A stretch of DNA of 52,684 bases from a virus, in IMG/VR virus record IMGVR_UViG_3300044455_000043, positions 1 through 52,684 of that record. The stretch is one strand, 5' to 3'. The notes under the pieces were generated by a model. The model ran no database searches. It was not told where the DNA came from and saw nothing but the letters and a program-made list of their open reading frames with translations. The position numbers and the translations under genes are program-made. Of this stretch, positions 1-44,857 are shown in pieces; position 1 is the first letter of the stretch, and each line of letters opens with the position of its first letter.

Positions 1-127
1 CTCAAAGACGGTGACGGAACCAAAACCCAGCCGATGCTCGTGCAATCCGACTTCATCGGCACCGTCACAGTCGGCAAACTGGAGAAGGCGACAGCCGGCG
101 GCATCCATCTGATCGGCAAGACGGAGA
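1..127. repeat. Terminal overlap, copy 1. It is identical to 52558-52684, so the contig closes on itself.
   Basis: Base-by-base comparison of both window ends gives a perfect 127-bp match. Confidence 0.95.
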
Positions 128-16680: not shown

Positions 16681-17727
16681 ATGGACTTGGTTGCTCCTCT
16701 CATTCCAGACGCGCAGCGGAATCAAGGCCCTGCCTTGTTTCTCCAAGGGCTCGGGCAAGGTTTGCAGGCGTTCACGCGCATGGCCGAGCAACGTCGGCAG
16801 AGCGAATCTGAGATCGCGCGCATGGCGTTGCAGGAACGGCTCGCGACTCAAGAGCATGATTTGCAGGCGCAGCGGTTGGCTCAAAGTTACGAGTTAGACA
16901 ACCGTCGAATTTTGAACGAGGAGGCGCTGATGCCCGCTCGCAAGGCTGAGTTGGAGGCGCGCGCGGATTACCAGACGAATACCCGAGGCGTGATCGCTCG
17001 CAAGGCAACGGCTCAGATCGCGGCGATGAACGACTTCAACCTGCGCGTGGCGAAGTATGGACTGGACGACCCGAATCCGAAAGATCCGGTGAAGTTCTAC
17101 GCGAACGCGCGTCGGCTGAAAGACGAGTTTAGCTGGGCGAACATTCCCGACATCAAGCTGGCGATAAAAGACATCGACATGCGGACGAAGGAGCACACCG
17201 TTCCATTGTTAATAAATCAGCGCACTACCGATGAGGCCGGGAATGTTCTAATTCAACCAATCACCAAGCAAGTTCCGATTGGCGAGGTTATCGAGAATAT
17301 CAAAGACCCGAAGAAATACGACCAGATGATTGATCTCTTGCGTCGAAACGGACTCTTCCCGAAATACATCGACCCGAACATCGACCCAGAGGGGGAGAAG
17401 GCGGAGACGGACAAGGTCAATGCTAGTCCTACAGTAAAAGCGTTACGGGCGGCTATTCAGGCAGAAACGAAAGCGGTTGAATCGGGCGGCGGAACAGATT
17501 TCAGCCGCGGACAACGCCGTGTTCAGCCTGGTGGATTGATGGCCGAACCGGAAGCGACGCCTGCGCCACCGCAGGACATTGACGAATCCGACCTGTTCAG
17601 CTCGATCGGGCAGACCGAGAAGTATCTCGGGTTCGCCAAGGCTGCTCTCGCCAAGGGCGCAGACCCGCGCGCGGTAGCGGCTAAGCTTCAAGGGTTTGGC
17701 GTGGATCCAGCGCAGCTTTGGGCATGA
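16681..17727 (+). CDS. Coiled-coil internal-virion-like protein, 348 aa.
   Basis: Long helical Q/E/R/A-rich N-terminal half. Assigned from position. Confidence 0.35.
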   Translation: MDLVAPLIPDAQRNQGPALFLQGLGQGLQAFTRMAEQRRQSESEIARMALQERLATQEHDLQAQRLAQSYELDNRRILNEEALMPARKAELEARADYQTNTRGVIARKATAQIAAMNDFNLRVAKYGLDDPNPKDPVKFYANARRLKDEFSWANIPDIKLAIKDIDMRTKEHTVPLLINQRTTDEAGNVLIQPITKQVPIGEVIENIKDPKKYDQMIDLLRRNGLFPKYIDPNIDPEGEKAETDKVNASPTVKALRAAIQAETKAVESGGGTDFSRGQRRVQPGGLMAEPEATPAPPQDIDESDLFSSIGQTEKYLGFAKAALAKGADPRAVAAKLQGFGVDPAQLWA

Positions 17728-17731
17728 AGCC

Positions 17732-20700
17732 ATGCCGACTGTCGAAGAAGTAGGGCCTTTTGCGGACCTCCTGCCAGACAATTTGCTTGGCGGCGAGAAC
17801 GGCCAGCCGGCATTCCAGACGGTCGGCGGTCGGTTCGAGCAGGTGCCACATGCCGAGATTGCTACTCCGACAGAGCTCGGCGCCTTTGCTGATTTGGTCC
17901 CGGCCGATGCGCCGTCGGCGCGCAGCATGGAAGGCGGCGACTATCTGGCGGGGAACCTCGGGCCGTTTACTGACCTGATCCCGGCGCCGAAGACCGAGAC
18001 GGAGAAAGCCGTCCGCGAGACGCCGGTATTCAATCCTCGGAACGAACAGATTCGGGCTGCACCGACATTCTTTGGAGAACTGCACGCTGGCAGACTCGGA
18101 AGCGCCTTTCACTTAGCGAAAGAGATGATCGTCAATGCGTTACCGGAGGAGCGCGGGTTGTCATGGGGTGAAGGTCCAAAGTCCCTACTCGGCACGACCG
18201 AAAGGCTGGAGGACGCTGTTATCAATCCAGACGATCCGCCTGAAATCGCATCGGCGAAGGCGCTCTACAACTCGACTCCCCTGCGAGCTGCGCGCGCTTT
18301 CATCAACGTCGCCAACCGGACGATGGCAGGGCTGACAACGCCTGGCATGATTCCACTGGCGGTGATTGGCGGCGGCGGCGGGATGGCCGGGAAACTGGTC
18401 GCTGGCGCTTTTGCGGGTGACATTGCCATGCACGCTCCAGAGACGTGGAAGGCGATTCAGGAGGCCGACAAGACCGAGCCGATGTCGCTGGAACGCTTCG
18501 AGACGGGCATGGATACCGTTTTGCAGGGGATGATGCTTCACGGCACAGCACGCCACGCCCTCAAGAAAACGCCTACAAAGCCCGCCAGCACGTCGGAACC
18601 AGCGCCGGCCGCAACGTCAGGGCCAGCTACGGAGACGGCACGCTACGCTGAGCCTGAGCGACCGATGGTGCCGATTAAGGAGATTCCGCCTGAAACTCCG
18701 CCTGCTCCTACCGTTCCCGAGAACGTGCGTCGCAATCCAGAGGTTGACCGTCTGATAAACGAGGAGCCGGTTGGCAACGATTGGACGAGGGCGACCGAGG
18801 AGATTCCCGAGGCCAGAGTTCAGCCGGAAGTCGCGCCAGAATCGCCGCGATCTCCCGCCGAGACTTCAACCGCTCCGGTTGAAACCATTGCTCGGGAGAC
18901 TCCCGTAGAGGTAGAACGTCCGCCACAGACCGAACCTGCCCGCGTTTCGCCGGAAGAACAAGCCGAATTGCAGCGGGATCTCGCGGAGGAGAGCGCGTTA
19001 CCGGAGACGGTCGAGCCGCCAGTCGAACCTGCGAAGCCTGCACCCGAGCCCAAAGTGCCGCCCGTCGTCGAACCCGCACCCGAGGTCGCACCGCTGGTTG
19101 TCGAGCCAGTTAAACCTGCGCCGGTCGCTCCGCAGAAGGTCGCGCCTCCGGTTACGCCAGAGGTTCGTAAGGCCGTGAATGCCCCAGACACGTCCTCCCA
19201 AAAACTGCGAGTTCAAAAGGCGTATCTTCTCGACGCGCTCGATGAGGCAGTTAAGAAAGCGCCGAGAGAGGAGGCGCTAACGGAGTCCGCTCGCGAATCA
19301 TTAAACGACGCGCGCAATACTCACTCCTCGCGATACCTGAGTGAAAGCGGCCAAGGCGAAAGAGCGAAAGACCTTGAAAACAAGTGGCAGGCTGTAAAGA
19401 GCACTGTTCCGACCATCGAGATTGAAGTGCCCGGCGATGGCACGTTCACCATCGTCAACACCACCGAGGCGATAAAGACATTCCGCGACCTTGTTAAAAA
19501 GAAATTCCCTTCGACCTCGGCAAAGCCTGACTCCCTCGGAGGGAATCTGCGCGCGACTGAGACGAAGATTGCTGCACCTGGCAAACCGAAAACGGAAAGC
19601 GATTTGGTTAAGATCGCACAGACCGCGGCGAGTAAGGATTTCGAGGGTCGGTTCGTGATTACGCACGTCAAGAGCGACGGCAAGACAATTACCGCAACAG
19701 ATGGTCGGCGGCTACTAATAGTTGAAGGTAAGGCCGGCGGCACCGAAGCGAAGCCCGTTTTTTACAACGAAGGCGGCAAGGCCGTTCCATTGATGGATAA
19801 GCGAGGAGAGGGCGCAACCAAGGGGAACTACCCAAATACCAAAGTCGTCACTCCGGACTATGGCCCAAAGAATGTCGTGGCCGAAGTGGACACCGCGGCT
19901 ATGCAAAAGCTGTTGGTGCAAGCGATGGAGATGACTAGCGACCGAAGCAAGTCCGTCAATCTGTGGATCGACAAGGAAGGGAAGATTGGCGTCACTAGCC
20001 AGCATCCCGATGTGGGAGAATTTGTCGGCGGAGAGGCAAACCCGGCAACTGCTAAGTTTGCGGCTTCCTACGATCCTCAATTTTTGCTCGACGGCATCCG
20101 AGCGGCACGCTCACTCGGACACGAAAAAGTCAGTTGGCAGCTAGACAAGAAACAGCCGGCGGAAAGCCCCGGCGTATTTACCGCAAAGGGAATGAAATAC
20201 GTCCTCATGCCGATGCGCATGGAAGCCGGAGGAGTTCACCCATTAGCCAAGGCGAAGATGGCCGTCGAAAGCAAGGCGTCGAAGATCAAACTGAAAGCGG
20301 AAAAAGAGGGCGGTTTCGTTTCCACTGATATCCTGAGCGAAGTCGCGGACTTCGGTCGCAGTATCTACAAAAAAGGGGTAACATTCGCAGAGTGGTCTGC
20401 CGAGATGGTGTCGCGTCTCGGGAGCAAGGTAAAGGCGCATCTGAAAAGCGTGTGGGACGGGATTCAGAAGATCACCGGCGACGAGCGCGGCGCGATCGGC
20501 GGCAACATCGGCCTGAATATCAAGGGAAAAAAGACACATCTGGACGCGGCGACGGCGAAGCACAGCGCCAAGCTTCAAGTGTCCGTGCGCGATGCTGAGC
20601 GCGCTGGGAAGGAAATCGGCAAGATCGCAAATGAGCGACGGCAGAACGCGATGAGCGTGTGGATGGAAGCCAAAGGCGATCCGGCGTTGCTCGCGCAGTG

Positions 20701-23005
20701 GGAGCAGGCCGGGAAAGGCAAGATGTTCAAACGCGCAGCCAAAGACGCGCAATCATTGAAGCCCGAGGAGATCGCGATGGCGCAAAAAGTCGCGCAGACT
20801 TTCGACGTTCTAGAGAAGCGCGGCAACACTTACGACGTTTTACAGGGGCACAAAGATAACTACGTGCCGCACGTTTGGGATGTGTCGAAAAAGTTTACGG
20901 GCATCGGCAGCGGCAAACTACAAGACCGTTTCAAATTCAACAAGGCGCGCACATTCGAGACGTTCTTTGAGGGTGACCAGGCTGGATTCAAGCCCAAGAC
21001 TCTCGCGATTGGGAAACTTCTCCCGAGCTACCTGCACGAGATGAATCGGGTGATTGCCGACCGGCAGTTCGTTCAAGACGTGACTTCGGGTACGGCGCCG
21101 GACGGTCGCCCGCTTGTCATCCCGCGCGGCAACGCAAAGACGGTGGACACAACCGACTACATCGTGCGCAATGCCGACGGTTCGCCCCTTCCGAAATTCA
21201 AGAAAGCCGTTTATGACACCGCTGCCGAGGCGCAGGCGGCATTGCTGCCGGGCCAGATCGTCGAGAAGCGGCCAACGTCCGCTGCGCTGGTCAACCCGAA
21301 AGGCTTTGCTTCGGCCAAGGACGCGGCCGGCAATCCGATCGAGCAAGGCGATTATCAAGTGACGAATCAGCCGGCGTTGTCGAATTGGCGATGGGTCGAG
21401 ACGGATCCGAAAGGCAATACGACCGTGCTGAAATCCGATCTTGCCGTTCATCCGAATCTGGCGAAACGGTTAAACTCGATGCTGGGACAGTCGGCGCTTC
21501 GCCAGTGGTACAATGAACCTTCCACTGGCCTCGCGACCATCCCGCGCGCGATTGCCAAGGGACTCGACACCGCGCAGTCAGTAATGAAGCGGGAAATGTT
21601 CGGTTCGCTGGCGCCGTTCCACCAGGTTCAAGAAGGAACGCATGCCGTCGGGCACATGGTCAATCCGTTCTTCGGCATCCCTGAAATGAGTCGTCCGACC
21701 GGAGCGCACATCGACGCGATGCAGCACGGACTAATGTTGATGCCCGAGAAGTTGGGTAGCAATTACTCCGAGGGGCTCGGTGGGCGAAACACGTTCTTGT
21801 CGCAACTCTCCAAGAAGTATGGAGGGAAGGCAGGGCGGGCGGTGTCCAACGTGCTCGATGGCTACCAGGATTATTTGTTCCACCAATATATTCCCGGCCT
21901 CAAATTCAAGACCTACGAGCACATGGTTCAGCGCAATGCCAAGCGTTACGCCAAGGAATTGGCGAGCGGTGAAGTCACGATGGGCGACGTGAAGATGCTT
22001 TCCGCGGAGCAATCGAACGCGGCTTACGGACACCTAAATTACAAGCTCCTTGACCGCAACCCAACCATTCAACACATCATGCAGTTAACGATGCTTGCCC
22101 CTGACTTTCTCGAAGCTCGCACCCGCTTCGTCGGACAGGCTTTGCGACCGAGCAAGGCAGGCTTTGAGCAGTTTCGCGCGATCGCGTTACTGGCAGCGAT
22201 TCAGGCCGGCAGCGCCTTTACGTTGTCCAAACTGATTCCCGAGGCCGAATACGATCCGAAACACCCGTTTGAATTGAGAGTCGGGAACCGCACCTACTTC
22301 ATGCGGAGCGTGCCGGAAGATTTGTTCCGCCTGTTCTTTAGTGGCACCGACAAAACCCGAGAGTTCGTCTCCGCGCGCATCAATCCGATGACGCAAAAGG
22401 CATGGCAGGCGGTGTCTGGTTTGAACTATCGCGGAGAAAAAGTGGATTGGACTGACACGATCGGAGAACTGGTCGCCAATTACATTCCGATCATGGCGCG
22501 ACCGTTGCCTGGCATCAATCAACTGACGGAAACCAGCCGAAACAATCCGGTTTCTCCGCTCGAGCAATGGGCGGGTTCTGCCGGCCTCAAGATCAGCCGA
22601 TATTCCCCTATCTCGAAAACCTATCAGATGGCGAAAGAATGGAAGGCCGAGAAAGGGTTGCCCGATGACGCCGGCTCCTATCCTGTCTCAAAATATCAGC
22701 AACTCCGGTACGCCTTGGAGGACAACGATTCTGAGAAAGCGTTGAAGGAATTTCAAAAGCTGCGCGCCTCTGGCATGGAACGGTCGAAGATCACCAGCGG
22801 CTTCAAGGAAAGCTTGCACCATTCCTTTACCGGCTCGCGTAAGACCGATGCCGAGTTTCGGGATTCACTGCCGAAGCACAAGCGGGCACTCTACGATCTC
22901 GCGGTTGAACGTCGGAAGAACATTCTCGATCGGTACAACAAGATCACGTGGCCTACCTCATCCTCTGAATCAACCGACTCGACGATTGTCGTTCCTTCGG
23001 AGTGA
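17732..23005 (+). CDS. Giant multidomain virion-module protein, 1757 aa (ejection or polyvalent-protein candidate).
   Basis: ATG 17732 lies 5 nt after the upstream stop; the tracked TTG at 17696 overlaps the previous gene. Domains in order: three G(P/A)F(A/T)DL(L/V/I)P motifs, a Gly-zipper hydrophobic segment, a P/E/A/V-rich linker, a DnaN-like domain, and a helical C-terminal region of about 900 aa. Confidence 0.6.
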   Translation: MPTVEEVGPFADLLPDNLLGGENGQPAFQTVGGRFEQVPHAEIATPTELGAFADLVPADAPSARSMEGGDYLAGNLGPFTDLIPAPKTETEKAVRETPVFNPRNEQIRAAPTFFGELHAGRLGSAFHLAKEMIVNALPEERGLSWGEGPKSLLGTTERLEDAVINPDDPPEIASAKALYNSTPLRAARAFINVANRTMAGLTTPGMIPLAVIGGGGGMAGKLVAGAFAGDIAMHAPETWKAIQEADKTEPMSLERFETGMDTVLQGMMLHGTARHALKKTPTKPASTSEPAPAATSGPATETARYAEPERPMVPIKEIPPETPPAPTVPENVRRNPEVDRLINEEPVGNDWTRATEEIPEARVQPEVAPESPRSPAETSTAPVETIARETPVEVERPPQTEPARVSPEEQAELQRDLAEESALPETVEPPVEPAKPAPEPKVPPVVEPAPEVAPLVVEPVKPAPVAPQKVAPPVTPEVRKAVNAPDTSSQKLRVQKAYLLDALDEAVKKAPREEALTESARESLNDARNTHSSRYLSESGQGERAKDLENKWQAVKSTVPTIEIEVPGDGTFTIVNTTEAIKTFRDLVKKKFPSTSAKPDSLGGNLRATETKIAAPGKPKTESDLVKIAQTAASKDFEGRFVITHVKSDGKTITATDGRRLLIVEGKAGGTEAKPVFYNEGGKAVPLMDKRGEGATKGNYPNTKVVTPDYGPKNVVAEVDTAAMQKLLVQAMEMTSDRSKSVNLWIDKEGKIGVTSQHPDVGEFVGGEANPATAKFAASYDPQFLLDGIRAARSLGHEKVSWQLDKKQPAESPGVFTAKGMKYVLMPMRMEAGGVHPLAKAKMAVESKASKIKLKAEKEGGFVSTDILSEVADFGRSIYKKGVTFAEWSAEMVSRLGSKVKAHLKSVWDGIQKITGDERGAIGGNIGLNIKGKKTHLDAATAKHSAKLQVSVRDAERAGKEIGKIANERRQNAMSVWMEAKGDPALLAQWEQAGKGKMFKRAAKDAQSLKPEEIAMAQKVAQTFDVLEKRGNTYDVLQGHKDNYVPHVWDVSKKFTGIGSGKLQDRFKFNKARTFETFFEGDQAGFKPKTLAIGKLLPSYLHEMNRVIADRQFVQDVTSGTAPDGRPLVIPRGNAKTVDTTDYIVRNADGSPLPKFKKAVYDTAAEAQAALLPGQIVEKRPTSAALVNPKGFASAKDAAGNPIEQGDYQVTNQPALSNWRWVETDPKGNTTVLKSDLAVHPNLAKRLNSMLGQSALRQWYNEPSTGLATIPRAIAKGLDTAQSVMKREMFGSLAPFHQVQEGTHAVGHMVNPFFGIPEMSRPTGAHIDAMQHGLMLMPEKLGSNYSEGLGGRNTFLSQLSKKYGGKAGRAVSNVLDGYQDYLFHQYIPGLKFKTYEHMVQRNAKRYAKELASGEVTMGDVKMLSAEQSNAAYGHLNYKLLDRNPTIQHIMQLTMLAPDFLEARTRFVGQALRPSKAGFEQFRAIALLAAIQAGSAFTLSKLIPEAEYDPKHPFELRVGNRTYFMRSVPEDLFRLFFSGTDKTREFVSARINPMTQKAWQAVSGLNYRGEKVDWTDTIGELVANYIPIMARPLPGINQLTETSRNNPVSPLEQWAGSAGLKISRYSPISKTYQMAKEWKAEKGLPDDAGSYPVSKYQQLRYALEDNDSEKALKEFQKLRASGMERSKITSGFKESLHHSFTGSRKTDAEFRDSLPKHKRALYDLAVERRKNILDRYNKITWPTSSSESTDSTIVVPSE
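19601..20221 (+). other. DnaN (DNA polymerase III beta sliding clamp)-like domain inside the giant protein.
   Basis: ITATDGRRLLIV resembles E. coli DnaN VATDGHRLAV. GNYPNTKVVTPDY resembles GRFPDYRRVLP. ASYDPQFLLDGI resembles GFNVSYVLDVL. YVLMPMRM resembles YVVMPMRL. The blocks occur in the same order and with similar spacing. Confidence 0.65.
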
Positions 23006-23738
23006 GCCGAGGATAGAGCCGCATTATCAGCGTTCTCGACGTAGGTCCGTCCGGGGTGTAAACGCAGTTCGGCCTCTGGACAATCGAGTTGGGATCGAAC
23101 TCAAAGCTCTCCTGAATCAGCGGCATCCCGAGGCCGGCCGCAATCCAGTACGGAGCGGATTGATTCCCGATGAACAGCTTCGCCCCTCGAATCACCATTG
23201 CCAGTTCGAGCAGATTCGCGGTCGGCTGATGCGGGAAGTTCCAATGCGTCTCTTTCTGCAATGCGACGTGCTCAGTCGGCAGACCGACAAAGACGACCGG
23301 CGCGTTCTTCACGATCAGTTCCGGCCAAGGGAAGAAGAAGTTGTGATACCGCAGGCTGCGCGCGATTACAGTTTTGTCATGTTGCACGAAGTCCGGCACG
23401 GTCAGCCACGGATCCAAGTCGATCTCGACGCCGACATACCGCGCCTGCCAGGTCGCCAGATTCTCGCCCTTTTTGAACGGAAGCTGCCGGAAGTGCGAGA
23501 GATCGTGCGTAATGCCCTGTGGCTCGTCCTGCCATTCGACCCCGGTCACATAAGGCTGGGCCAATAAAAGCGGCCGTATCGCCTCGTAGCGAGCGCCACG
23601 CATCGTTTCCCGAGGGCTTCGTCCTCTGTCCTTGAACTTGGACTCGGAGATTACGATGTCGCCGCCGCCGAGGGCGCGGAGGATAGGGAGCGAGGCAATC
23701 ACATCCCCGAGGTCGCCTTGGTGCTGTAGCCGGATCAT
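22953..23738 (-). CDS. Glycosyltransferase family 9 (heptosyltransferase)-like protein, 261 aa.
   Basis: N-terminal GDLGDVIASLPILRAL and C-terminal LLELAMVIRGAKLFIGNQSAPYWIAAGLGMPLI match GT9 signatures. Strong AAGGAGGG Shine-Dalgarno sequence. Confidence 0.6.
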   Translation of the reverse strand: MIRLQHQGDLGDVIASLPILRALGGGDIVISESKFKDRGRSPRETMRGARYEAIRPLLLAQPYVTGVEWQDEPQGITHDLSHFRQLPFKKGENLATWQARYVGVEIDLDPWLTVPDFVQHDKTVIARSLRYHNFFFPWPELIVKNAPVVFVGLPTEHVALQKETHWNFPHQPTANLLELAMVIRGAKLFIGNQSAPYWIAAGLGMPLIQESFEFDPNSIVQRPNCVYTPDGPTSRTLIMRLYPRLTPKERQSSSRLIQRMR

Positions 23739-23883
23739 TCCCGACCCTCCTTATTGGGCCGTCCGATAACTATTTCAGAACGATAGCATTCGTATCGAAA
23801 GATATTATCGAGTGATAAAGCGGCCACGAATAACCTCCACCGTATCCGCGGCGTTTTCTCAAATGCAAATATCCACTTTCGAT

Positions 23884-24519
23884 TCATGGCTTATCCATCT
23901 CAAAACTTCCGCTTTCGCTGGCGAAGCGATCAAGGTGCCGCAGTTCCGGCACGTCGCTGCATCCGAATTGCATCACGCGAAAGCCGACGAACCCAGCCTG
24001 CTCTGCCAGCATTCGGAGCAGGCGTTCGTCGAACAGGACCGTGTGCTCCCATCCTCGCGCGAACGCCATGAACCGTGTCGCTGCGCAGTCCGGCCCTGTC
24101 ACCTTGAAGTCCGGCCCGTAAACGCCCTTCAAATCGTCGCCTTCGACGTAGAGCTTGGCGACCTTCATCAGATCGGGGACGACAAGGCGAAGGGTGCCGC
24201 CGGGTTTCAGGATTTTGTGTGCCACAGAAAAGAATTTCGTCACACCTTCCGGCCATGACAGGTGCTCTATTGAGTGCAGGCTTATGATCCCGTCAACCGA
24301 ATCGGCAAGATCCAATTCGAGATAGTCCATCACTACGTCCGGTTGATGCGATTGCTCTTTATCAATGTTGATCCACTCGACGCCATCCTGCCGGATGTGA
24401 CATTTTCCTGACCCTAAATTAAGGAATCGCTTCATTGGAACTCGGGCAGCGTTTTCCATGTAACAACGTACATGTAATGAGAATAAAACGTCATGGTGTT
24501 CGCCTTTGGATTTCGCCAT
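23884..24519 (-). CDS. Class I SAM-dependent methyltransferase, about 211 aa. The start is uncertain (alternatives at 24459 and 24435).
   Basis: FLNLGSG (motif I), IISLHSIEHL and ILKPGGTLRLVVPD are Methyltransf_11/23-type signatures. Confidence 0.65.
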   Translation of the reverse strand: MAKSKGEHHDVLFSLHVRCYMENAARVPMKRFLNLGSGKCHIRQDGVEWINIDKEQSHQPDVVMDYLELDLADSVDGIISLHSIEHLSWPEGVTKFFSVAHKILKPGGTLRLVVPDLMKVAKLYVEGDDLKGVYGPDFKVTGPDCAATRFMAFARGWEHTVLFDERLLRMLAEQAGFVGFRVMQFGCSDVPELRHLDRFASESGSFEMDKP

Positions 24520-24594
24520 TGCCAAACCCCGAAGGCGATAGAGTGGTACGCCATCACCGCGCACAACAGTAAATAAAGGCAGTGATTAACGCCT

Positions 24595-25206
24595 TCATTT
24601 CAGATACTTCCTGAAAACCTCAACCCGTTTCTCGACCGTCATGCCGGGAAGGTGCATCGCGAAATCACCGGGAGTCCAGTTGCCTTCGGTTGTCGCTGGC
24701 ATGTCGTAATCCTCGTAGGCGTACGAATTGAACCGCTTCTGAGGAACGTGCGTCACCAAGCACCGCTCGCAGTCCCGCATCGCCTCGACAATCGCGTGCT
24801 GCTCGCTGCCAATGTCCGCTCGATCCCGCATGTGCCAGGCGTCGGACAAGATCACTCGCGCAGCTACCGAATTGCGAACGAAGAACACCCCGAGGTTCGG
24901 CCCGTTCATGTCGTGCGACAAAACGAAGTCAGATTGAATCGGCACGTCGATCAGAAATTCCTCCAGCTTGAGCATCGGATTCGTAATCAGCACGTCCGAG
25001 TCGATGAAGAACGACCAGTTGTTTTCGTGCAGATTTTCCAAGAGCAGTGGAATCTTGTCCCACACAATCCGCTGAGTGGACAGGCGCTCCGTCGCGACGG
25101 TCAGCGGGTAGCCGTGACGCTCGCAGTAGGCTCGCAGGACCGGCACCGTAATGTCGGCGACCGGCTGGAATAGAGAATCGTGGAAGGTGAATACTCCGAT
25201 TGTCAT
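24595..25206 (-). CDS. GT-A glycosyltransferase resembling the GT34 / GMA12-MNN10 family, 203 aa.
   Basis: WDKIPLL, the DxD-type IDSDVLI, NLGVFFVRNS, EQHAIVEAM and GDFAMHLPG. ATGA overlap with the upstream gene. Confidence 0.5.
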   Translation of the reverse strand: MTIGVFTFHDSLFQPVADITVPVLRAYCERHGYPLTVATERLSTQRIVWDKIPLLLENLHENNWSFFIDSDVLITNPMLKLEEFLIDVPIQSDFVLSHDMNGPNLGVFFVRNSVAARVILSDAWHMRDRADIGSEQHAIVEAMRDCERCLVTHVPQKRFNSYAYEDYDMPATTEGNWTPGDFAMHLPGMTVEKRVEVFRKYLK

Positions 25207-26006
25207 ACGGTTGGCAGTTCTAGGCACGCAACGTCATTTGGTCCGCAAATCCCCTGCTTGAGAATGAAGTCGCGGACCATCGGATACGGCATCGAGTTGA
25301 GAGATTTCAAAACTCCGCGTCGGTAGGTTTGCCAGCTTATCACCATGTAGTCGTCCCAATTCGCAGGAGGGTAGAGAACGCCGCCGAGCCTCCCGAGAAC
25401 ATGTTCCAGCGCAGGCGCGTGACCGTACTTCGCGAACCGTTTATCTTCGTTCACAACCGCCTCGTCGAGCTTCACGAAGTCCAACGTCTCGCGTTTGCAG
25501 ATGAAGAACCGCGTCGAAGCCCAATACATCTTGTGCTCAGCAAGCGTCATCGTCGTCGGCTGGCAAACGAACTGGTACCCGTCGTCCAGCCACCGGAGAT
25601 ATTGCGATACGATGTCAGAGTTGGGATCGCGGAACGCTGCGCAGTCCTGGTCGAAGTGCGCGACGTAGCTCCCGGTAGCGAGCTTGAGCGCAGCCACCGT
25701 GATCTTGTCGTACCAGAATTTGCTTTTCCTTTCGTGCGGCTGGCAAATAAACGTGTCGATCTCGCCGCGGCGGATCATCTCGTGGATCTCAGACTGCACT
25801 GAATCAGGCAGCGGTTCGTGTTCGTCGCACGCAACGATGACCTCGACAGTGTGGCCGGCGAAGAATTGAATCTTGTTCCGAATCCCGTCCGTCAACAGGT
25901 CGTAACTGCGAACGCCTTGCAAGGAACCGGGGCCGAAGTCACCGACGGTGCTTTGCTCGGCACCGGCACCTTTGCGAGAATCAACGTTACAGACTATCGA
26001 GATCAT
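25203..26006 (-). CDS. GT-A-like (GT2-type) putative glycosyltransferase, 267 aa.
   Basis: N-terminal ISIVCNVDSR and the DxD-type HFDQDCAAF. ATGA overlaps at both ends. Confidence 0.4.
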   Translation of the reverse strand: MISIVCNVDSRKGAGAEQSTVGDFGPGSLQGVRSYDLLTDGIRNKIQFFAGHTVEVIVACDEHEPLPDSVQSEIHEMIRRGEIDTFICQPHERKSKFWYDKITVAALKLATGSYVAHFDQDCAAFRDPNSDIVSQYLRWLDDGYQFVCQPTTMTLAEHKMYWASTRFFICKRETLDFVKLDEAVVNEDKRFAKYGHAPALEHVLGRLGGVLYPPANWDDYMVISWQTYRRGVLKSLNSMPYPMVRDFILKQGICGPNDVACLELPTV

Positions 26007-26695
26007 TCGTGTTCCCCAGGCGGTAGGTCAGTATTGAAACTCGGCTCATCCTTGATTTTCTCGCAGAGCGCGATGAAAACTCCGTTCCACCAAATTTTGT
26101 CGTCCTGCTTCCGCTTTCCGCTCAGCTTCCACTCCTGCACGATCTTCACTTTGCCTTCAAGAGTCTCGAAGCCAGTCTTTACCCCGGCGGAAACTTGCGG
26201 CCAGTGAAAATCATCGACGATGAAGATGAAGCGGTCGGCGAGCAGGTCAAAGAAAGCAGGAAGCGCGTTTGATGTAGGCTCGAAATCGTGATGGCCGTCG
26301 TAGCAAAATACGTCGTAACGACTGCCGATCTCTTCCGGCTTCTCGGCCAGCTCGAAACAATCTCCCTCGATGAAGTGAACGTAATTCCCGGTGTCTCGCC
26401 ACTTCTGTAGATTTGCGGCCAGTTCTTCCCGCACTCCCTGGCGGGAAAAGTCCTGCGCGAAGTTGTCGATCCCGACTGCCGCAGTGCAGAGGTTTTTGTT
26501 GAACGCCGCGATGAACGTCCCACCGCAATACACGCCGACTTCAAGATAATGCAGCCCGTCGATGTTGCACAGGTTGGAAAATAAATGGCGCATTGCGGGG
26601 GTACTAAAGCCGTGAATCTTTAGAACCTCGGGGTCGAGATGGCTCTCGCCTTTCAGGGCGCGGGCGATACTGGAATTGATGTGCTCGGGTGTCAT
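26003..26695 (-). CDS. Class I SAM-dependent methyltransferase (Methyltransf_24 / TylF-CmcI-like), 230 aa.
   Basis: YLEVGVYCGGTFIAAF, AVGIDNF, FIEGDCFE and YDVFCYDGHHDFE. The start was chosen at the ATGA overlap (26695). Confidence 0.55.
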   Translation of the reverse strand: MTPEHINSSIARALKGESHLDPEVLKIHGFSTPAMRHLFSNLCNIDGLHYLEVGVYCGGTFIAAFNKNLCTAAVGIDNFAQDFSRQGVREELAANLQKWRDTGNYVHFIEGDCFELAEKPEEIGSRYDVFCYDGHHDFEPTSNALPAFFDLLADRFIFIVDDFHWPQVSAGVKTGFETLEGKVKIVQEWKLSGKRKQDDKIWWNGVFIALCEKIKDEPSFNTDLPPGEHE

Positions 26696-26973
26696 TCGAT
26701 TACCTCGCGGACGTGGATGCACTTATCGCAGTGACTTCGATCTGATTGAATATCTGCGCTATCATTGCTTATGAAATGTATCCACCACTCTCTCGGCTTC
26801 GGTGGTTCGGGTTTAATCCGATATTCAAAGTGATCGAACATCCACCGGCAGGTTGGATCGGCACTGACAGGCATCCAATGTCGCCCACGAGTAGAGTGAT
26901 CTAACTGTCTCGCCTCTATTGGCTTTCCGTCGCGATGCGCTTCAAGAACCCGAATCATTTCGTTGTGAGTCAT
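26692..26973 (-). CDS. Hypothetical protein, 93 aa.
   Basis: ATGA overlaps at both ends. No motif was recognised. Confidence 0.4.
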   Translation of the reverse strand: MTHNEMIRVLEAHRDGKPIEARQLDHSTRGRHWMPVSADPTCRWMFDHFEYRIKPEPPKPREWWIHFISNDSADIQSDRSHCDKCIHVREVIE

Positions 26974-27944
26974 AGGCGTGCTTCGATCAGAGGCAAAATG
27001 TAATTCTCGCAATACGGCTTGGTCTGATATTTCCGAACCGTGTCCTGACTGGCGAGATAAATCTGGTAGAGATCGGGCCGGCGCGTCGCGGCATCCAAGT
27101 CGGTGAAAACCTTTTCGTTGTCAGTGGACACCCGAATGCAATTCACTCCGTCAATCCAGTCGTAGGACCACGCCAGTTTATCGTGCATCATCGCCATGAT
27201 CGTGCCGACGGGCGCCTCGGCCATTCGGAAGCACTTAGCTCCGCATCCTGGCAGGCTCACGCTCATCTTTGACCGTTCTTGGTACCACTCGATTGTCGTG
27301 ATGGGTCGCCTGGCGTAGTGCGGCGCGAAGATCGAGGCCCATGTGCGCGCTGCCGGGCTTTTGAAATACTCATGGAATTGATCCGACTCCGAGATTACTC
27401 CAATGCCGTGCGTCGTCATGGCGTGGAAGATCGCGGCATGAAGGATCGGCCGGCTGGGATGGGAAAATCCCCAGCAATGAAACACGTCAATCGGCCGCTC
27501 GTTGAATTGATCTTCCGTTTGCGGCGCCGGGATTTCCAATCTGCACGGCCAGTCGCACGGCTTTACCGTGTCGCTCTCATCGACTGCCAATAGCTCACGT
27601 TTCAGATACAGGATCGGCGGATTCTCCCGCACGAAGTTGTCGAGATGATGCCAGTGCGGAGTCAGCCAACGACATTCTTTCGCGTTCTTGCCGAACAGCA
27701 TTGTCGGACTTCCGAGATCGAAATAGTTGTGCTCCATCTCGGTAAAATCGAGCAGGACGTACGGCTTTTTGAAATCCAGTAACCGCGGATTGAATCGGTA
27801 ATCCTGCCAGGTCGTGACGGGAACTAAGACGACATCGCAGTTGTATGGCGACGAGCTCCGTTCTGGGAAGCCCGCGAACAGATGCGCTTGCAGGGTGCCG
27901 TCGATTCTCAACTGCGAATCGCAGCTCATCACGTGGACTCTCAT
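26970..27944 (-). CDS. Hypothetical protein, 324 aa (possible GT-B-type glycosyltransferase).
   Basis: The C-terminal MSVSLPGCGAKCFRMAEAPVGTIMAM resembles the exostosin/GT-B donor-binding motif (S.f.L.p.G....R..Ea...G.iPv). This is weak evidence. Confidence 0.35.
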   Translation of the reverse strand: MRVHVMSCDSQLRIDGTLQAHLFAGFPERSSSPYNCDVVLVPVTTWQDYRFNPRLLDFKKPYVLLDFTEMEHNYFDLGSPTMLFGKNAKECRWLTPHWHHLDNFVRENPPILYLKRELLAVDESDTVKPCDWPCRLEIPAPQTEDQFNERPIDVFHCWGFSHPSRPILHAAIFHAMTTHGIGVISESDQFHEYFKSPAARTWASIFAPHYARRPITTIEWYQERSKMSVSLPGCGAKCFRMAEAPVGTIMAMMHDKLAWSYDWIDGVNCIRVSTDNEKVFTDLDAATRRPDLYQIYLASQDTVRKYQTKPYCENYILPLIEARL

Positions 27945-28474
27945 AGCCGTTGCAGCACAAACTCGCAGAACGCTTCCACGCCATCCTCGAAACGAAATGT
28001 CTGGTCGATCGCCGCCGGTTTTGATCGGTCGTAATTTGTGTCGACCTCGACACACCGCATCACCCTCGCCGGAAATTGCCTCAACCATTCCGGTAACTTG
28101 CAGTGAACCTCGGCCGGCGACGCGTTGGCGTACAAGCTCCACGTGCTGATATGGCCCGCGTTGTACTCAGACGGCCAGACGCGCTTTTCATACAACTCCC
28201 ACGACGGAACGCTGGCGACGATGTAGCCGCCAGGCTTCACGACTTTCAGCCACGAGTGCAGGGCGACAACCGGATCCCGCATGTGTTCGAGCACCTGGCT
28301 ACCTGTCACAACGTCGAAGGAGTTAGGCGGATAGAACTTCGTGAGGTCATCCCCGCCACCGTCCGGCAGGTCGAAGCCGATCGTGTTCGGCAATGGCAGA
28401 ATATCATCCGCGCATCCGACATCCAGGATCCACCCTTGGAAAATCTCTTTCCACGGAAACGTCGTGTCCGCCAT
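27941..28474 (-). CDS. Class I SAM-dependent methyltransferase, 177 aa from ATG 28474. An alternative TTG start at 28507 overlaps the upstream stop.
   Basis: ILDVGCA (motif I), FDVVTGSQVLEHMRDP and LKVVKPGGYIVASVP. Confidence 0.65.
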   Translation of the reverse strand: MADTTFPWKEIFQGWILDVGCADDILPLPNTIGFDLPDGGGDDLTKFYPPNSFDVVTGSQVLEHMRDPVVALHSWLKVVKPGGYIVASVPSWELYEKRVWPSEYNAGHISTWSLYANASPAEVHCKLPEWLRQFPARVMRCVEVDTNYDRSKPAAIDQTFRFEDGVEAFCEFVLQRL

Positions 28475-28503
28475 GCGGCGACGGTGAGCTTTACTTGCCT
28501 CCT

Positions 28504-28983
28504 TCAACGCGCGACCTCCATGCTCACAACCTTTTGTGGCGCGGGTAACGCCAGCCCCGAGAACTTCTTTTCCACGAGCGCATCGTAAACCGTCTGCCCA
28601 CTGGCGTTCTGAGCGTAAGGTAAAAACACCTGCTCGACCGTGACCATTCCGGTTTCGATCAGCGCCAGTTGCGCCTCTATCCAATCTTTCAAGATCCGCC
28701 ATGCGACACGGGCGGCCTGCGCCGAATCCTTGTCGAACTTGCGCGGTATTTTCCCTGCGCGTGCCTGCTTTGAAAGCGTTGCTTCCACTGCGTCTATCCG
28801 AGCGGGCAACTGGAATGCCATCTCACCGAATTGCGTGTTAATTCGGAACGAGACGGAAGACACGTTGCCGAACCCGTCATATTCGTGCAGCACTTGGCGA
28901 GCACCAGCCGAAGCAAGTTTGGCCTGAATCTCTGAGACAGTTTTCTCTCCCGAGATCGACGTTGTGTAATTAAGCAGTCCCAC
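28504..28983 (-). CDS. Hypothetical protein, 159 aa.
   Basis: GTG start with a GAGGAGGAAGAGGA Shine-Dalgarno sequence that is embedded in the poly-basic tail codons of the upstream gene. Confidence 0.5.
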   Translation of the reverse strand: MGLLNYTTSISGEKTVSEIQAKLASAGARQVLHEYDGFGNVSSVSFRINTQFGEMAFQLPARIDAVEATLSKQARAGKIPRKFDKDSAQAARVAWRILKDWIEAQLALIETGMVTVEQVFLPYAQNASGQTVYDALVEKKFSGLALPAPQKVVSMEVAR

Positions 28984-30148
28984 GTTTCCTCTTCCTCCTC
29001 TTAACCGGCTTCGGAATCACGCCGGCCTCTGCGAGCAGTGATCGGACTGCGTGTGTCGCCATCGGCGCTGTCTGGAACTGGCGCAGGCGACCCGCGAGAC
29101 ACTTGATTTCGTGGATCGCTCCGTCGCGGTCGGCCCAAAGATTCGGTGTGTCCTTGGTCAGCTTCTCGTAGATGTCTCGCAGAAACTCAGCGGTGAATGC
29201 CGAGCTTTCCGGTTGGGACGTAGAGTTTTGAGTGGGCGGGGCGCTACTCCCGCATCCTGCCATTGAAGAAGAACTTAGAACCTCCGCGCTTTGGGTCTCG
29301 GAGCGACCGAGAACCTCTCTGCGAATTTGCTCCTCAACCGGACCTTGGTTTCCTGACCCTTCGTTTGCAACCTCCGAGTCAGAAGCAGGCGTAACCGTCG
29401 AATAAGAGGCGGGTCTGCTTCCCCCGCCGCCACTCAAATTCTTTCGCTCCCGCAGCAATCCGAGGAGCGTTCCGGTCTTGTCCGAATGAAACAGAGCGCA
29501 CTTCGGACGCCTCGCGAAAATCTTGGCCTCAACGTCGGACCAGTCCTTGAACGGCGCGAGTCCTTGGCCGTTCTGGTTCCAAACGTGGAAAATCAATTCG
29601 CTCTGCTTCGCCTGCGAGTGGATCGCTGGGCCGGCCACGATGTCCCACGGCGTCTTGTCGTCCGCGTAAAAGACTTCGCCTGCGTATTGCGTCATGTTGC
29701 CAGGGAAAACGCCGCACCCACTCATGTGCAAGACCGAGCCGGGCAACTGTTTGCGGTGGTCGATCAGATCCCCGAGGAAATACTTCTTCTCTCTGAGCGC
29801 AACGAGATACTCCACTTCGATCTCATCGAACGCAGACGCACGCAGGACCACGGCATCCGGTTCGAGTAGCAGGAACGGCCGCGCTCTCATCGCATACTGC
29901 ACGTGTTTCGCGATCTTCTTGAAAGCGTGATTCGCCGAAGCGGGCCAGGAGTTTGCCGTGTCATCGGCAATTACGATCTCGTTAAACACCGGCAGATTCT
30001 TGTGACCGACGAAAACCATCGGATCGCACTGACGCTCGCGTGCGATCAGGAATTGGTGGTTAGGAAACGGCCCGAGTTCATCCAGCCACTCGGCCAACTT
30101 GGATGCCAAGTGTTGATCTTTCCGGCAGTAATGGAGAGCTACGATCAT
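28970..30148 (-). CDS. Hypothetical protein, 392 aa. It has a globular N-terminal domain (possible GT-A), an S/G-rich disordered linker and a basic C-terminus.
   Basis: Start at the ATGA overlap (30148). LLLEPDAVV is a possible ExD/DxD motif and WPASANHAF is also present. C-terminal KRRKRKRG. Confidence 0.4.
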   Translation of the reverse strand: MIVALHYCRKDQHLASKLAEWLDELGPFPNHQFLIARERQCDPMVFVGHKNLPVFNEIVIADDTANSWPASANHAFKKIAKHVQYAMRARPFLLLEPDAVVLRASAFDEIEVEYLVALREKKYFLGDLIDHRKQLPGSVLHMSGCGVFPGNMTQYAGEVFYADDKTPWDIVAGPAIHSQAKQSELIFHVWNQNGQGLAPFKDWSDVEAKIFARRPKCALFHSDKTGTLLGLLRERKNLSGGGGSRPASYSTVTPASDSEVANEGSGNQGPVEEQIRREVLGRSETQSAEVLSSSSMAGCGSSAPPTQNSTSQPESSAFTAEFLRDIYEKLTKDTPNLWADRDGAIHEIKCLAGRLRQFQTAPMATHAVRSLLAEAGVIPKPVKRRKRKRGTA

Positions 30149-30405
30149 TTTGGCAGTTCGATGAAGCTTCGGTCTTGGTAAAATGACTCCAATGGTTTCC
30201 AAAATTTGTAAACCATCTGATCGTAACTGACAGTCTCGTAGATTTCGTAGCGCCACTCCCAGTCCCGCCCGGCTTCTATGTCTGCTTTGGCAGCGGCGCT
30301 TATCTGCTTTATGAGCTTGTGACGAAAAGCCAACACGTAATCATTCCGAATCATTATCGTTATGCTGCCGACCAACACGATCACACTGCAAATCAGCAGA
30401 ATCAC
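30145..30405 (-). CDS. Signal-anchor membrane protein, 86 aa.
   Basis: GTG start in a GTGA overlap with the upstream stop. N-terminal ILLICSVIVLVGSITIMI. Confidence 0.4.
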   Translation of the reverse strand: MILLICSVIVLVGSITIMIRNDYVLAFRHKLIKQISAAAKADIEAGRDWEWRYEIYETVSYDQMVYKFWKPLESFYQDRSFIELPK

Positions 30406-30575
30406 GGCACGATCTCCAGAGAAGGTTTCGCGTCGCGGGTAGCGTAGGTCGCCCACTCGGTCGTATGTTTGCTTCCCATGTGGACGAGCGCGGCCCATCC
30501 GAGAAGCGTAAACGCCAGGCACACGAGCAACCCTTGCTTCAAGACTCGCGTCTCTCGATCAGTTTCTTCGATCAT
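30402..30575 (-). CDS. Small membrane protein, 57 aa.
   Basis: ATG in an ATGA overlap with the GIY-YIG gene stop. Transmembrane segment LLVCLAFTLLGWAALV. Confidence 0.4.
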   Translation of the reverse strand: MIEETDRETRVLKQGLLVCLAFTLLGWAALVHMGSKHTTEWATYATRDAKPSLEIVP

Positions 30576-31039
30576 TTCCTGCCTTTCTTCGGCCACCGAC
30601 TCTTACGAGCGTGCGCCATTTGTTTCCTGCTGTAAGAAAAACTTAAACCTCTGTGCGTCTCGCCTTTGACCGCGAGTAGTGTTTTGGCTCTACTGTCGCA
30701 AATCCCTAAGCACCGCGCCATTTCAGCGCGAGATGGAAATGATGTCCCATTGCTGCACCAAACTTTTCGTCCGGCCAATGAATCGTGCAGTGGCACCGCG
30801 TTTTTGAAACCGGAATTGAGATTGTGTTTCGCTTGCCCGATTGCCTTGAAGTGAGCAATCCATCTGCGTTCCGAATCCTTCAATGTATTCCTGTTCCACG
30901 TCTCAATAATTCGGAATTTAAGATGAGGATATTTTCGTCGATGCGTTACCGATCTACCGGCTGGGTCGATAGTGATTCCGACATAATCGCATTGCTCTCC
31001 ATCGAACAGACCGTAAACGTAAATAGGAAGCACCTTCAC
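30572..31039 (-). CDS. GIY-YIG family nuclease (homing-endonuclease-like), 155 aa.
   Basis: IYVYGLF...YVGIT (GIY-YIG), R...H and E..WI. C-terminal NGTSFPSRAEMARCLGI is a NUMOD1/IENR1-like helix-turn-helix. GTGA overlap with the XRE gene. Confidence 0.65.
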   Translation of the reverse strand: MKVLPIYVYGLFDGEQCDYVGITIDPAGRSVTHRRKYPHLKFRIIETWNRNTLKDSERRWIAHFKAIGQAKHNLNSGFKNAVPLHDSLAGRKVWCSNGTSFPSRAEMARCLGICDSRAKTLLAVKGETHRGLSFSYSRKQMAHARKSRWPKKGRK

Positions 31040-38101: not shown

Positions 38102-38403
38102 GGCAAATCAGCTTTCGGTAGCACGCTTTCAAATTGGATAACGAACTTCCCGTTTTCCATCGGGAGAACGACCGGACGAAAGTCGCTCACAATCGACACG
38201 TAGGACGGATCCCAGCCGCGTTGATCGTGTGCCTTCGTATTACTCCGCTGCACTCTCAGCCATTGCCCAGCGACCCCGCCGGCAAAGTCAACGTAGGGCG
38301 GCTCCTGCGCTTCCGGCGCCGCCTCCATTACGACGATCGCTCCGCAGATAAGCGTGACGACGCCACACGCGAAGCCTGCCAGGATTTTATTGGCGGCGAT
38401 CAT
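38098..38403 (-). CDS. Signal-anchor membrane protein, 101 aa. Its first 35 codons lie in 108-bp repeat copy 1.
   Basis: MIAANKILAGFACGVVTLICGAIVVMEAAPEAQEP followed by a unique 66-aa domain. Confidence 0.5.
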   Translation of the reverse strand: MIAANKILAGFACGVVTLICGAIVVMEAAPEAQEPPYVDFAGGVAGQWLRVQRSNTKAHDQRGWDPSYVSIVSDFRPVVLPMENGKFVIQFESVLPKADLP

Positions 38404-38406
38404 TGG
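38299..38406. repeat. 108-bp perfect direct repeat, copy 1.
   Basis: Identical base for base to 39165-39272. Confidence 0.95.
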
Positions 38407-39135: not shown

Positions 39136-39269
39136 ATACGGGTCTCACGACGTTTTAGACGATTCGGCTCCTGCGCTTCCGGCGCCGCCTCCATTACGAC
39201 GATCGCTCCGCAGATAAGCGTGACGACGCCACACGCGAAGCCTGCCAGGATTTTATTGGCGGCGATCAT
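39063..39269 (-). CDS. Possible 68-aa membrane protein starting in 108-bp repeat copy 2. Its tail overlaps the start of the next gene.
   Basis: Same 35 N-terminal codons as 38098..38403. Its ATG forms an ATGA overlap with the stop of 39266..39667. The unique tail looks low quality. Confidence 0.3.
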   Translation of the reverse strand: MIAANKILAGFACGVVTLICGAIVVMEAAPEAQEPNRLKRRETRICPSPDTSATHSKVSPRNSFWPLS

Positions 39270-39272
39270 TGG
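39165..39272. repeat. 108-bp perfect direct repeat, copy 2.
   Basis: Identical base for base to 38299-38406. Confidence 0.95.
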
Positions 39273-44128: not shown

Positions 44129-44139
44129 AATATTTTCTT

Positions 44140-44754: not shown

Positions 44755-44857
44755 ATTTTTCTTTCTAAAGCGTCTGCCGATCGGAAGTAGAAAGGGAAAG
44801 CATAATAACCCTGCCGGCATTACTGCTTGGGCCTTCCGACCGACGGACGAGCTGAGA

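Follow-up and report, generated by a model that had tools for sequence, protein, structure and literature searches.

A phage-borne island of glycosyltransferase and methyltransferase genes as a candidate pathway for methylated glycans

Introduction

The mycobacteriophage Corndog encodes an O-methyltransferase, two glycosyltransferases (GTs) and an N-acetylglucosamine (GlcNAc)-transferase (gp35-38) between its portal and protease genes (PMC4351075), and its glycosylation genes are reported, in the account given by a citing paper, to modify the capsid and the tail tube (Freeman 2023, as cited in PMC11600133). Phages of the Che8 type, in which the GTs lie towards the far end of the genome, have glycosylated capsids all the same (PMC11256854). 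In the literature that we found, particle glycosylation has been shown experimentally only for a few actinobacteriophages, and most known cases of methylated glycans made by viruses come from giant viruses. Here we describe an island of ten genes, g10 to g1 from its upstream end, all on the minus strand at positions 22953-30148 of a 52,684-nucleotide stretch of viral DNA (the window; IMG/VR record IMGVR_UViG_3300044455_000043, positions 1 to 52,684). A sequence-only reading of the window had picked out these ten same-strand genes as a cluster of GTs and S-adenosylmethionine (SAM)-dependent methyltransferases; the cluster is borne out, at least 7 of the 10 genes encoding sugar-adding or methyl-adding enzymes. 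We propose, with a probability of roughly 0.45, that their products may form a cytoplasmic set that builds a methylated glycan on virion proteins.

The mycobacteriophage gene sets resemble the island in combining phage-encoded, soluble GTs with an O-methyltransferase and in having no lipid-carrier or export genes. The Corndog genes lie inside the head-gene block, as do those of two types of relatives of the island (types A and B below), and the Che8-type GTs lie far from the structural genes, as does the island in the window. Unlike the mycobacteriophage sets, the island comprises four or five transferases and three methyltransferases, which makes it larger and richer in methyltransferases than the phage precedents. 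It has no detectable similarity to genes of isolate phages (tblastn with g4, g7 and the N-terminal domain of g10), and it belongs to a phage lineage that is unlike the mycobacteriophages, has no cultured relative and is unrelated to any isolate (terminase identity at most 22-25%).

The second parallel is with chlorovirus PBCV-1, in which A064R (a GT-A domain, a GT of a new family and a methyltransferase) and A061L build the capsid glycan in series in the cytoplasm, the methyltransferases involved being class I SAM enzymes that O-methylate sugars (PMC9614988). The GT-A domain of A064R has a GT34-like fold according to its published description, and g3 is GT34-like; relatives of g10 share the three-domain logic of A064R, with an N-terminal domain, a DUF6492-like domain and a methyltransferase. 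PBCV-1 differs from the island in being a eukaryotic virus with an N-linked glycan, and the activities of the island reside mostly in separate, translationally coupled genes, unlike the multidomain A064R. Both parallels had been drawn by the sequence-only reading; they are apt, and are strengthened by the gene fusions and neighbourhoods found in relatives. The island would work like the mycobacteriophage and chlorovirus systems, yet we file it as a member of neither, and nothing in it contradicts current understanding. Two further types of phage-borne pathway bear comparison, i.e. the GTs of DNA-modifying phages, which act on 5-hydroxymethylcytosine and can add heptose, di- or trisaccharides (10.1101/2023.12.21.572611), and the GtrABC/Oac systems; both are considered below.

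Gene coupling and glycosyltransferases of the island

The ten open reading frames (ORFs) of the island run head to tail. Overlaps are present at eight successive junctions, from that between g10 and the ORF upstream of it (u1) to that between g4 and g3. Six of these, read directly, are ATGA overlaps (u1/g10, g8/g7, g7/g6, g6/g5, g5/g4 and g4/g3), the g9/g8 junction, likewise read directly, is a TTGA start/stop overlap, and g10 and g9 overlap by 14 nucleotides. The intergenic gaps from g3 to g2 (about 75-160 nucleotides, varying with the start chosen for g2) and from g2 to g1 (146 nucleotides) are real, so that the last two genes lack translational coupling. The coupling claimed for the whole run hence holds from g10 through g3, but not for g2 and g1. 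A scan of the island for promoters and terminators returned no more than expected by chance.

The claim of a GT34/GMA12-like GT-A enzyme is confirmed for g3 (24595-25206, 203 residues), which matches PF05637 (GT34) with E = 1.4e-17 (64.7 bits, the cut-off being 23), matches Nucleotid_trans with E = 1.4e-4 and carries the DXD motif IDSDVL. The gene is variable in close relatives, yet is present in distant islands.

The most widespread core gene is g4 (25203-26006, 267 residues), with 141 homologous clusters, none of which has a Pfam domain. The g4 sequence matched nothing in Pfam, NCBIfam, PHROGs or the PDB, and a profile of its family gave no significant match in the PDB. Its AlphaFold2 model (predicted local distance difference test score, pLDDT, 92.9) was matched by Foldseek to SpsA, TarP, GtrB, PcManGT and glycogenin, with E of about 1e-4 and template-modelling (TM) scores of 0.37-0.46, the Foldseek probability being 1.0 for SpsA, TarP, PcManGT and glycogenin. 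The nucleotidyltransferase KdsB also matches the model, because it has the same fold, and many GT-A proteins of phages and giant viruses in BFVD do so as well. Residues D119-x-D121 are invariant in 56 sequences, as is D61. A GT2-like GT-A enzyme had been proposed for g4; the models support the GT-A fold, but not membership of GT2, as the sequence did not match the Glycos_transf_2 profile. The product of g4 thus appears best treated as a member of an unannotated GT-A family that is distantly linked to DUF6492.

A possible GT-B protein had likewise been suggested, and g7 (26970-27944, 324 residues) is predicted to have that fold. It has 56 homologous clusters, again none with a Pfam domain, and neither sequence searches of Pfam, NCBIfam, PHROGs and the PDB nor a profile search of the PDB gave a match. 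The AlphaFold2 model (pLDDT 96.0, predicted TM score 0.91) was matched by Foldseek to EXTL3, GtfA, SdgB, BshA, GlgM and MshA (E of about 3e-6 to 1e-4, TM scores of about 0.4-0.56). There were 98 Foldseek matches in the PDB at E<=1e-3; the best 50 of these 98 all have the GT-B fold, are nearly all glycosyltransferases, and include UDP-GlcNAc 2-epimerase and the pseudo-glycosyltransferase VldE/ValL. Assignment of g7 to GT4 (Glycos_transf_1) was not supported by sequence, since neither g7 nor its 56 homologues matched in Pfam. Whatever the target of the island, the models assign folds to two sizeable families, those of g4 and g7, that have no Pfam coverage.

The fourth candidate GT is g1 (22953-23738, 261 residues), for which a GT9 heptosyltransferase-like function had been claimed. 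The signals are there but weak: PF01075 (GT9) scores 18.1 bits, below its cut-off of 22 bits (E = 1.8e-3), over 37 residues only, and TIGR02201, the NCBIfam heptosyltransferase III model, scores 21.3 bits against a cut-off of 170 (E = 1.2e-4). The hhalign alignment of g1 with the bona fide GT9 domain of neighbouring family F7 is collinear but likewise weak (E = 1.9e-3, 157 columns, probability 14%). In an alignment of the 13-member g1 family, G11-D12 and Q193-S194 are invariant; the corresponding profile matched nothing in the PDB. The gene has its own ribosome-binding site, AAGGAGG, behind the 146-nucleotide gap. We tentatively regard g1 as GT9-like. Apart from this weak g1/GT9 link and one between g4 and the DUF6492-like domain, profile-profile comparisons among the g10 N-domain, g4, g7, g3, GT_PLOD and F5 revealed no relationships.

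Methyltransferases

Three small-molecule-type class I SAM methyltransferases had been claimed, and three were found above the Pfam cut-offs, all with a SAM-binding, glycine-rich motif I (LDVGCADD in g8, LEVGVYCGG in g5 and LNLGSGK in g2) and with resemblance to small-molecule enzymes such as UbiG and UbiE. The product of g8 (27941-28507, 188 residues) matches Methyltransf_23 (PF13489) with 38.6 bits against a cut-off of 27 (E = 1.2e-9) and Methyltransf_11 (PF08241) with 33.7 bits (E = 5.9e-8). Its start is the TTG at 28507, which overlaps the stop of g9 and is preceded by a GGAGG 6 nucleotides upstream; this start agrees with the orthologues, which are present in loci L002, L005, L007 and L008. 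The product of g2 (23884-24459) matches Methyltransf_11 (PF08241) with 30.2 bits against a cut-off of 21.2 (E = 7.3e-7). Its start is uncertain (24435, 24459 or 24519), giving a protein of about 183-211 residues; in the 211-residue version, alignment with the L002 and L005 orthologues begins at residue 30-33.

The third enzyme, g5 (26003-26695, 230 residues), is of the Methyltransf_24 type (PF13578, 37.5 bits against a cut-off of 26.3, E = 4.7e-9) and aligns with the C-terminal half of phrog_1458 (E = 1.8e-25). In 123 cyanomyovirus records, a 'hypothetical protein' of about 527 residues has a g5 homologue as its C-terminal half, and the gene for this protein sits among virion structural and 2-oxoglutarate-Fe(II) oxygenase genes, e.g. 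in Synechococcus phage S-CAM4 (NC_031900.1, 101841-103424; L048). From the operon context and from fusions to GT-like domains, we infer that the substrates of g2, g5 and g8 would be sugar hydroxyls.

The g10 family

The first gene of the island, g10 (28970-30148), encodes a protein of 392 residues. Its residues 1-236 are a conserved N-domain that belongs to an unannotated family; next come a linker of low complexity, which varies, and a C-terminal module of about 60 residues, which is conserved and has the basic tail KRRKRKRG. A GT-A head had been suggested for this protein, but the suggestion was not upheld. Neither the g10 sequence nor profiles of 11 and 28 members matched anything in Pfam, NCBIfam, PHROGs or the PDB; 28 diverse g10 N-domains scanned against Pfam gave no match either, and hhalign comparisons of the N-domain with the profiles of g3, g4, GT_PLOD, F5 and the DUF6492-like domain gave E>=0.06. 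Only 11 clusters close to g10 were found, in the alignment of which W68-P69, E96-P97-D98, G144, D169, H221 and K224 are invariant. E96, D98 and K224 never vary among 28 diverse members of the N-domain family, in which D11, N73, D169 and H221 are almost fully conserved. The conservation of E96-x-D98, D169 and H221 would be compatible with a GT-A enzyme, without amounting to proof.

The N-domain family is large (2379 representative clusters at E<=1e-3), and 65 of the top 144 representatives carry a tandem double copy of the domain. Ten long relatives of g10 were scanned; 9 of the 10 have weak or significant DUF6492 and/or Stealth_CR2 matches downstream of the N-domain, and 7 of the 10 end in an FkbM methyltransferase. 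The DUF6492-like domain of these fusions aligned with g4 by hhalign with E = 1.6e-4 over 112 columns; the middle domain is a distant relative of g4. The g10 N-domain is thus flagged as defining a large uncharacterized family that gene fusion ties to glycan synthesis and methylation.

Two members of the family differ in their setting. In P0271 (784 residues) an HNH endonuclease (PF13392) and a sigma-70 region-4-like helix-turn-helix stand between the N-domain and the DUF6492-like domain. In L003 (6915-14126) a distant g10-family protein of 547 residues is encoded directly after an Acb3 (PF25187) gene and is followed by split thiamine-diphosphate enzyme genes (Transket_pyr, E1_dh/TPP_enzyme_C) and a zinc alcohol dehydrogenase gene, a group that may be a sugar- or phosphonate-modifying set.

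Related islands and their neighbourhoods

Seven of the island genes (g10, g8, g7, g5, g4, g2 and g1) are syntenic in the independent assemblies L002 and L005, with 41-82% identity, and L007 and L008 hold parts of the same order. The others, g3, g6 and g9, come and go among close relatives. A stretch identical from g9 to g3 is present in L001, which comes from another sample. In L011 (16494-17825) a g8-like methyltransferase and a g1-like domain are fused in one protein of 443 residues. This fusion and the g10 N-domain/DUF6492-like/FkbM fusions tie the g10 domain, a g4-like GT-A enzyme and the methyltransferases into one pathway, and suggest which transferase pairs with which methyltransferase.

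Scanning IMG/VR with the g4 family alignment gave 34 loci, 33 of them non-redundant; single-protein scans of IMG/VR with g3 and g7 gave no match. The ORFs of 47 fetched loci were clustered, and the recurrent families were annotated with Pfam and PHROGs, which revealed three island layouts. In type A (17 loci) the major head protein (phrog_29) is followed by the island and then by the major tail protein and the tape measure protein. The type A island comprises a 682-residue GT4+GT9 fusion, a 246-residue protein, Methyltransf_24/Methyltransf_23, g4, a GT4 enzyme and a B12-binding radical SAM enzyme. Within the span fetched, one or more of the head, tail and tape measure genes are present in 16 of the 17 type A loci, and 7 have them on both sides. 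In type B (8 loci) the order is g7, g3, a PLOD-type GT, g7, Methyltransf_24, g4, Methyltransf_24 and g1, immediately followed by the genes for the large terminase (phrog_6681) and the portal (phrog_6547). Type C comprises the window and its close relatives, in which the island lies at the end of the early operon. Overall, in 24 of the 33 non-redundant g4 loci the island lies on the same strand as particle-building genes and beside or inside them.

The B12-binding radical SAM enzyme is a regular member of the type A islands (Radical_SAM E = 6.9e-20, B12-binding E = 1.4e-15; examples are L036, 8958-10169, and L016, 12722-13927), and hints that the glycan may be C-methylated or modified by some other radical reaction.

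Homologues of g4 and g7 occur on contigs from a few kb to 259 kb in length, and the phages concerned share little besides the island, which implies that the island is mobile. A cluster of this kind had been thought unusual for a phage of this size, a view that the comparison does not sustain, given that the core genes recur, that g4 islands occupy 33 non-redundant loci and that g4 and g7 have homologues in 141 and 56 protein clusters, respectively. We found no description of such a broadly distributed island type in the literature searched. Among GTDB genomes, a scan with the g7 alignment gave no match, and one with the g4 alignment gave a single metagenome-assembled contig, binned as Ignavibacteriaceae, which is probably itself a phage contig. 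A blastn search of the island against isolate phages found nothing.

Proposed function and alternative acceptors

In the pathway that we propose, g7 (GT-B), g4 (GT-A), g3 (GT34), g1 (GT9-like) and possibly g10 would add sugars drawn from the nucleotide-sugar pool of the host, g8, g5 and g2 would methylate those sugars using SAM, and the glycan would most likely be attached to at least one virion protein in the course of particle assembly; the choice of sugars, the sequence in which the enzymes act and, most of all, the acceptor are deduced from gene content and context. All ten proteins are predicted to be soluble, with no membrane segment in g1-g10 (no 19-residue window above a hydropathy of 1.53). 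In line with the sequence-only reading, scans of the ORFs with Pfam, PHROGs and NCBIfam found no Wzx/Wzy, flippase, lipid-carrier transferase or sugar-nucleotide synthesis enzyme. Soluble enzymes together with the lack of membrane, export and precursor genes fit the suggestion that a methylated glycan is put together in the cytoplasm, with nucleotide sugars and SAM supplied by the host. The morphogenesis neighbourhoods of the relatives favour virion proteins as the acceptor, and the precedent of the Che8-type GTs, which lie far from structural genes, makes the position of the island in the window compatible with virion glycosylation.

Several points weigh against this proposal. In the window the island belongs to the leftward early/recombination operon; the structural genes are on the other strand, and the island touches their block only at the end of that block. 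The link to virions would be one of guilt by association, drawn from distant relatives with only 30-45% g4 identity, and islands that are expressed late could serve other ends. No similarity to g4, g7 or the g10 N-domain was found by tblastn in GenBank phage records, and GT9-like and GT34-like enzymes are also typical of lipopolysaccharide (LPS) and cell-wall glycan synthesis.

The last point leads to the alternative that the island remodels the host envelope, its enzymes working at the cytoplasmic face and adding methylated sugars to the LPS core, to another glycoconjugate or to a surface protein (pilin, flagellin or S-layer), and so blocking superinfection or keeping progeny phages off debris. 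Such a role would suit the GT9/heptosyltransferase-like g1, the general association of GT34, GT4-like and GT2-like enzymes with cell-envelope glycan synthesis, the presence of TarP and the GtrB catalytic domain among the structural neighbours of g4, and the location of the island in a non-structural operon. We nevertheless consider it unlikely, since the scans found no flippase, GtrA/GtrC-type membrane partner, acyltransferase or membrane segment, and since in 24 of the 33 related loci the island lies in or abuts morphogenesis genes. The GtrABC/Oac systems resemble the island in being phage-borne and including a GT, to the catalytic domain of which (GtrB) g4 is similar at the fold level, but they differ in having the GtrA flippase, the membrane-bound GtrC, a membrane-anchored GtrB, transmembrane segments and an integrase, none of which was found here. 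GtrABC-type seroconversion was rejected for want of membrane proteins, and as neither an integrase nor a lysogeny module was seen, lysogenic conversion is less likely and classic seroconversion unlikely.

The nature of the enzymes raises a further alternative, namely that (methylated) sugars are added to modified bases of the phage DNA in evasion of restriction. Known systems for DNA hypermodification comprise clusters with a C5-methyltransferase or ThyS, 5mYOX and GTs, and the T4 alpha/beta-glucosyltransferases. They resemble the island in that they encode GT-A and GT-B enzymes close to TarP, BshA, MshA and LPS enzymes, several of which can act in series; the published DNA-glycosylating phage GTs (10.1101/2023.12.21.572611) resemble the same proteins, and the same PDB entries are found among the structural neighbours of g4 and g7. 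The phage moreover encodes two DNA methyltransferases (43007-44278 and 44140-44820), the tail of g10 is strongly basic, and the island comes after recombination and nuclease genes. Unlike the described DNA-modifying clusters, the window has no enzyme that generates a hydroxymethylpyrimidine among the ORFs scanned; specifically, no thymidylate-synthase-like hydroxymethylase, 5mYOX/TET-JBP dioxygenase or ParB was found with Pfam, PHROGs and NCBIfam, although a very divergent dioxygenase among the small unannotated ORFs could escape such scans. The two DNA methyltransferases lie 13 kb from the island, whereas such pathways are usually clustered, and T4 beta-glucosyltransferase is absent from the best 50 of the 98 structural neighbours of g7. 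The cited DNA pathways include no sugar methyltransferases, and thus no counterpart of the three small-molecule-type methyltransferases or of the B12-binding radical SAM enzyme of the relatives. Finally, the relatives' islands sit among capsid and tail genes, rather than in the DNA-metabolic surroundings of the hypermodification clusters. DNA as the acceptor hence appears highly improbable. The argument made against it in the sequence-only reading, i.e. the lack of a base-hydroxymethylase, retains its force, but is tempered by the two DNA methyltransferases and by the similarity to published DNA-modifying GTs.

The glycan could also be a free methylated oligo- or polysaccharide or glycoside, or could be attached to a non-virion protein such as a host factor or a defence protein, with a role in takeover or counter-defence. 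The molecule that receives the glycan is not visible in the sequence, the structural neighbours of g7 include a methylmannose-polysaccharide mannosyltransferase, GtfA, BshA, MshA and LmbT, the methyltransferases resemble UbiG and UbiE, and one distant member of the g10 family is encoded beside the Acb3 counter-defence gene. Set against these points, the Foldseek matches are of a kind common to the fold as a whole, the scans revealed no genes for a carrier, export or precursor synthesis, and the neighbourhoods of the relatives point to morphogenesis; we think an acceptor of this kind improbable, though less so than DNA.

Glycosylation of virion proteins remains our preferred reading. If it is correct, glycosylated particles would be a common trait of uncultured phages that infect other hosts, which would bear on the stability of the particles, on how hosts, grazers and immune systems recognize phages, and on the design of phage therapy. 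A bolder and somewhat doubtful extension is that the islands are widespread, undescribed phage 'virion glycan' modules that make heavily O-methylated glycans, are mobile across unrelated tailed-phage lineages (podovirus-like, siphovirus-like and jumbo-sized contigs) and draw on at least three unannotated families (the g4 GT-A, the g7 GT-B and the g10 N-domain). On this extension, the g10 N-domain could represent a new family of transferases or the enzyme responsible for initiation, and in relatives with the B12-binding radical SAM enzyme the glycans would perhaps also be C-methylated.

Integrity of the genome and other features of the window

The termini of the window (1-127 and 52558-52684) are an exact 127-nucleotide direct repeat, so that the genome is closed, being either circular or assembled as a circle, with a length of 52,557 bp. 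That the island might be bacterial DNA mis-joined to a phage contig has little to commend it beyond a codon-usage correlation that is somewhat lower for the island versus the rest of the genome (0.82) than for structural versus early genes (0.91). The guanine-cytosine content and the codon usage of the island are inside the range of the genome, the upstream junction (early genes, then g10) recurs in the independent loci L002 and L008, the g9-g3 stretch is found unchanged in the second sample, and homologous islands are present in 34 IMG/VR viral contigs. On the basis of the closed genome and the conserved junctions we reject an assembly chimera.

Two ORFs had been described as of unknown function, and they match only PHROGs of unknown function. 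Both are accessory and variable. The first, g9 (28504-28983, 159 residues; phrog_17260, E = 7e-12), is missing from L002, L005 and L007, and is 97% identical to its counterpart in L008 (5496-5972), where the flanking g10, g8 and g7 are 57-74% identical, a difference that suggests recent exchange of g9. The second, g6 (26692-26973, 93 residues; phrog_21668, E = 5e-9), was seen in no locus but the window and the identical contig L001. Upstream of g10, u1 (30145-30522, minus strand) encodes 125 residues with one predicted transmembrane helix (hydropathy maximum 2.99) and matches phrog_25285, of unknown function; as it is not conserved upstream of g10 in L002, L005 and L008, its membership of the island is doubtful. 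Further upstream, the minus-strand genes encode a VRR-NUC nuclease, a Lar-like protein, a YqaJ exonuclease and an ERF recombinase.

The plus-strand structural genes include a large terminase (45511-47286), which gave weak matches only (its best matches in isolates being 22-25% identical), a portal-sized protein, a scaffold-like protein with no match among isolates, a probable capsid protein and tail-fibre-like proteins. The ORFs at 654-1874, 51165-52403 and 17696-23005 encode candidate virion proteins. The DNA methyltransferases, adjacent to each other on the minus strand, are of the N6_N4 type with a large insertion (43007-44278; Pfam E = 2.5e-49) and a 226-residue protein (44140-44820) that matches phrog_757, 'DNA methyltransferase', with E = 2e-49 and has no Pfam match. 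No integrase or DNA polymerase was seen among the window ORFs scanned.

The structural block ends with a 1769-residue ORF (17696-23005, plus strand), the 3' end of which overlaps the 3' end of the convergent g1 by 53 nucleotides. It has a long Pro/Thr/Glu/Ala-rich region and no Pfam match, and its residues 648-842 match phrog_6615, annotated as 'DNA polymerase', with E = 1.8e-6. It may be an ejected internal virion protein, and its Pro/Thr-rich region is a conceivable target of O-glycosylation.

Elsewhere in the window, an exact 108-nucleotide direct repeat (38299-38406 and 39165-39272, 866 nucleotides apart) duplicates coding sequence, so that two small minus-strand ORFs share a hydrophobic segment at the N terminus (MIAANKILAGFACGVVTLICGAIVVMEAAPEAQEP). 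The N terminus of a 155-residue ORF (30572-31039, minus strand) looks GIY-YIG-like by eye (YVYGLF...YVGIT), with no supporting Pfam or PHROG match.

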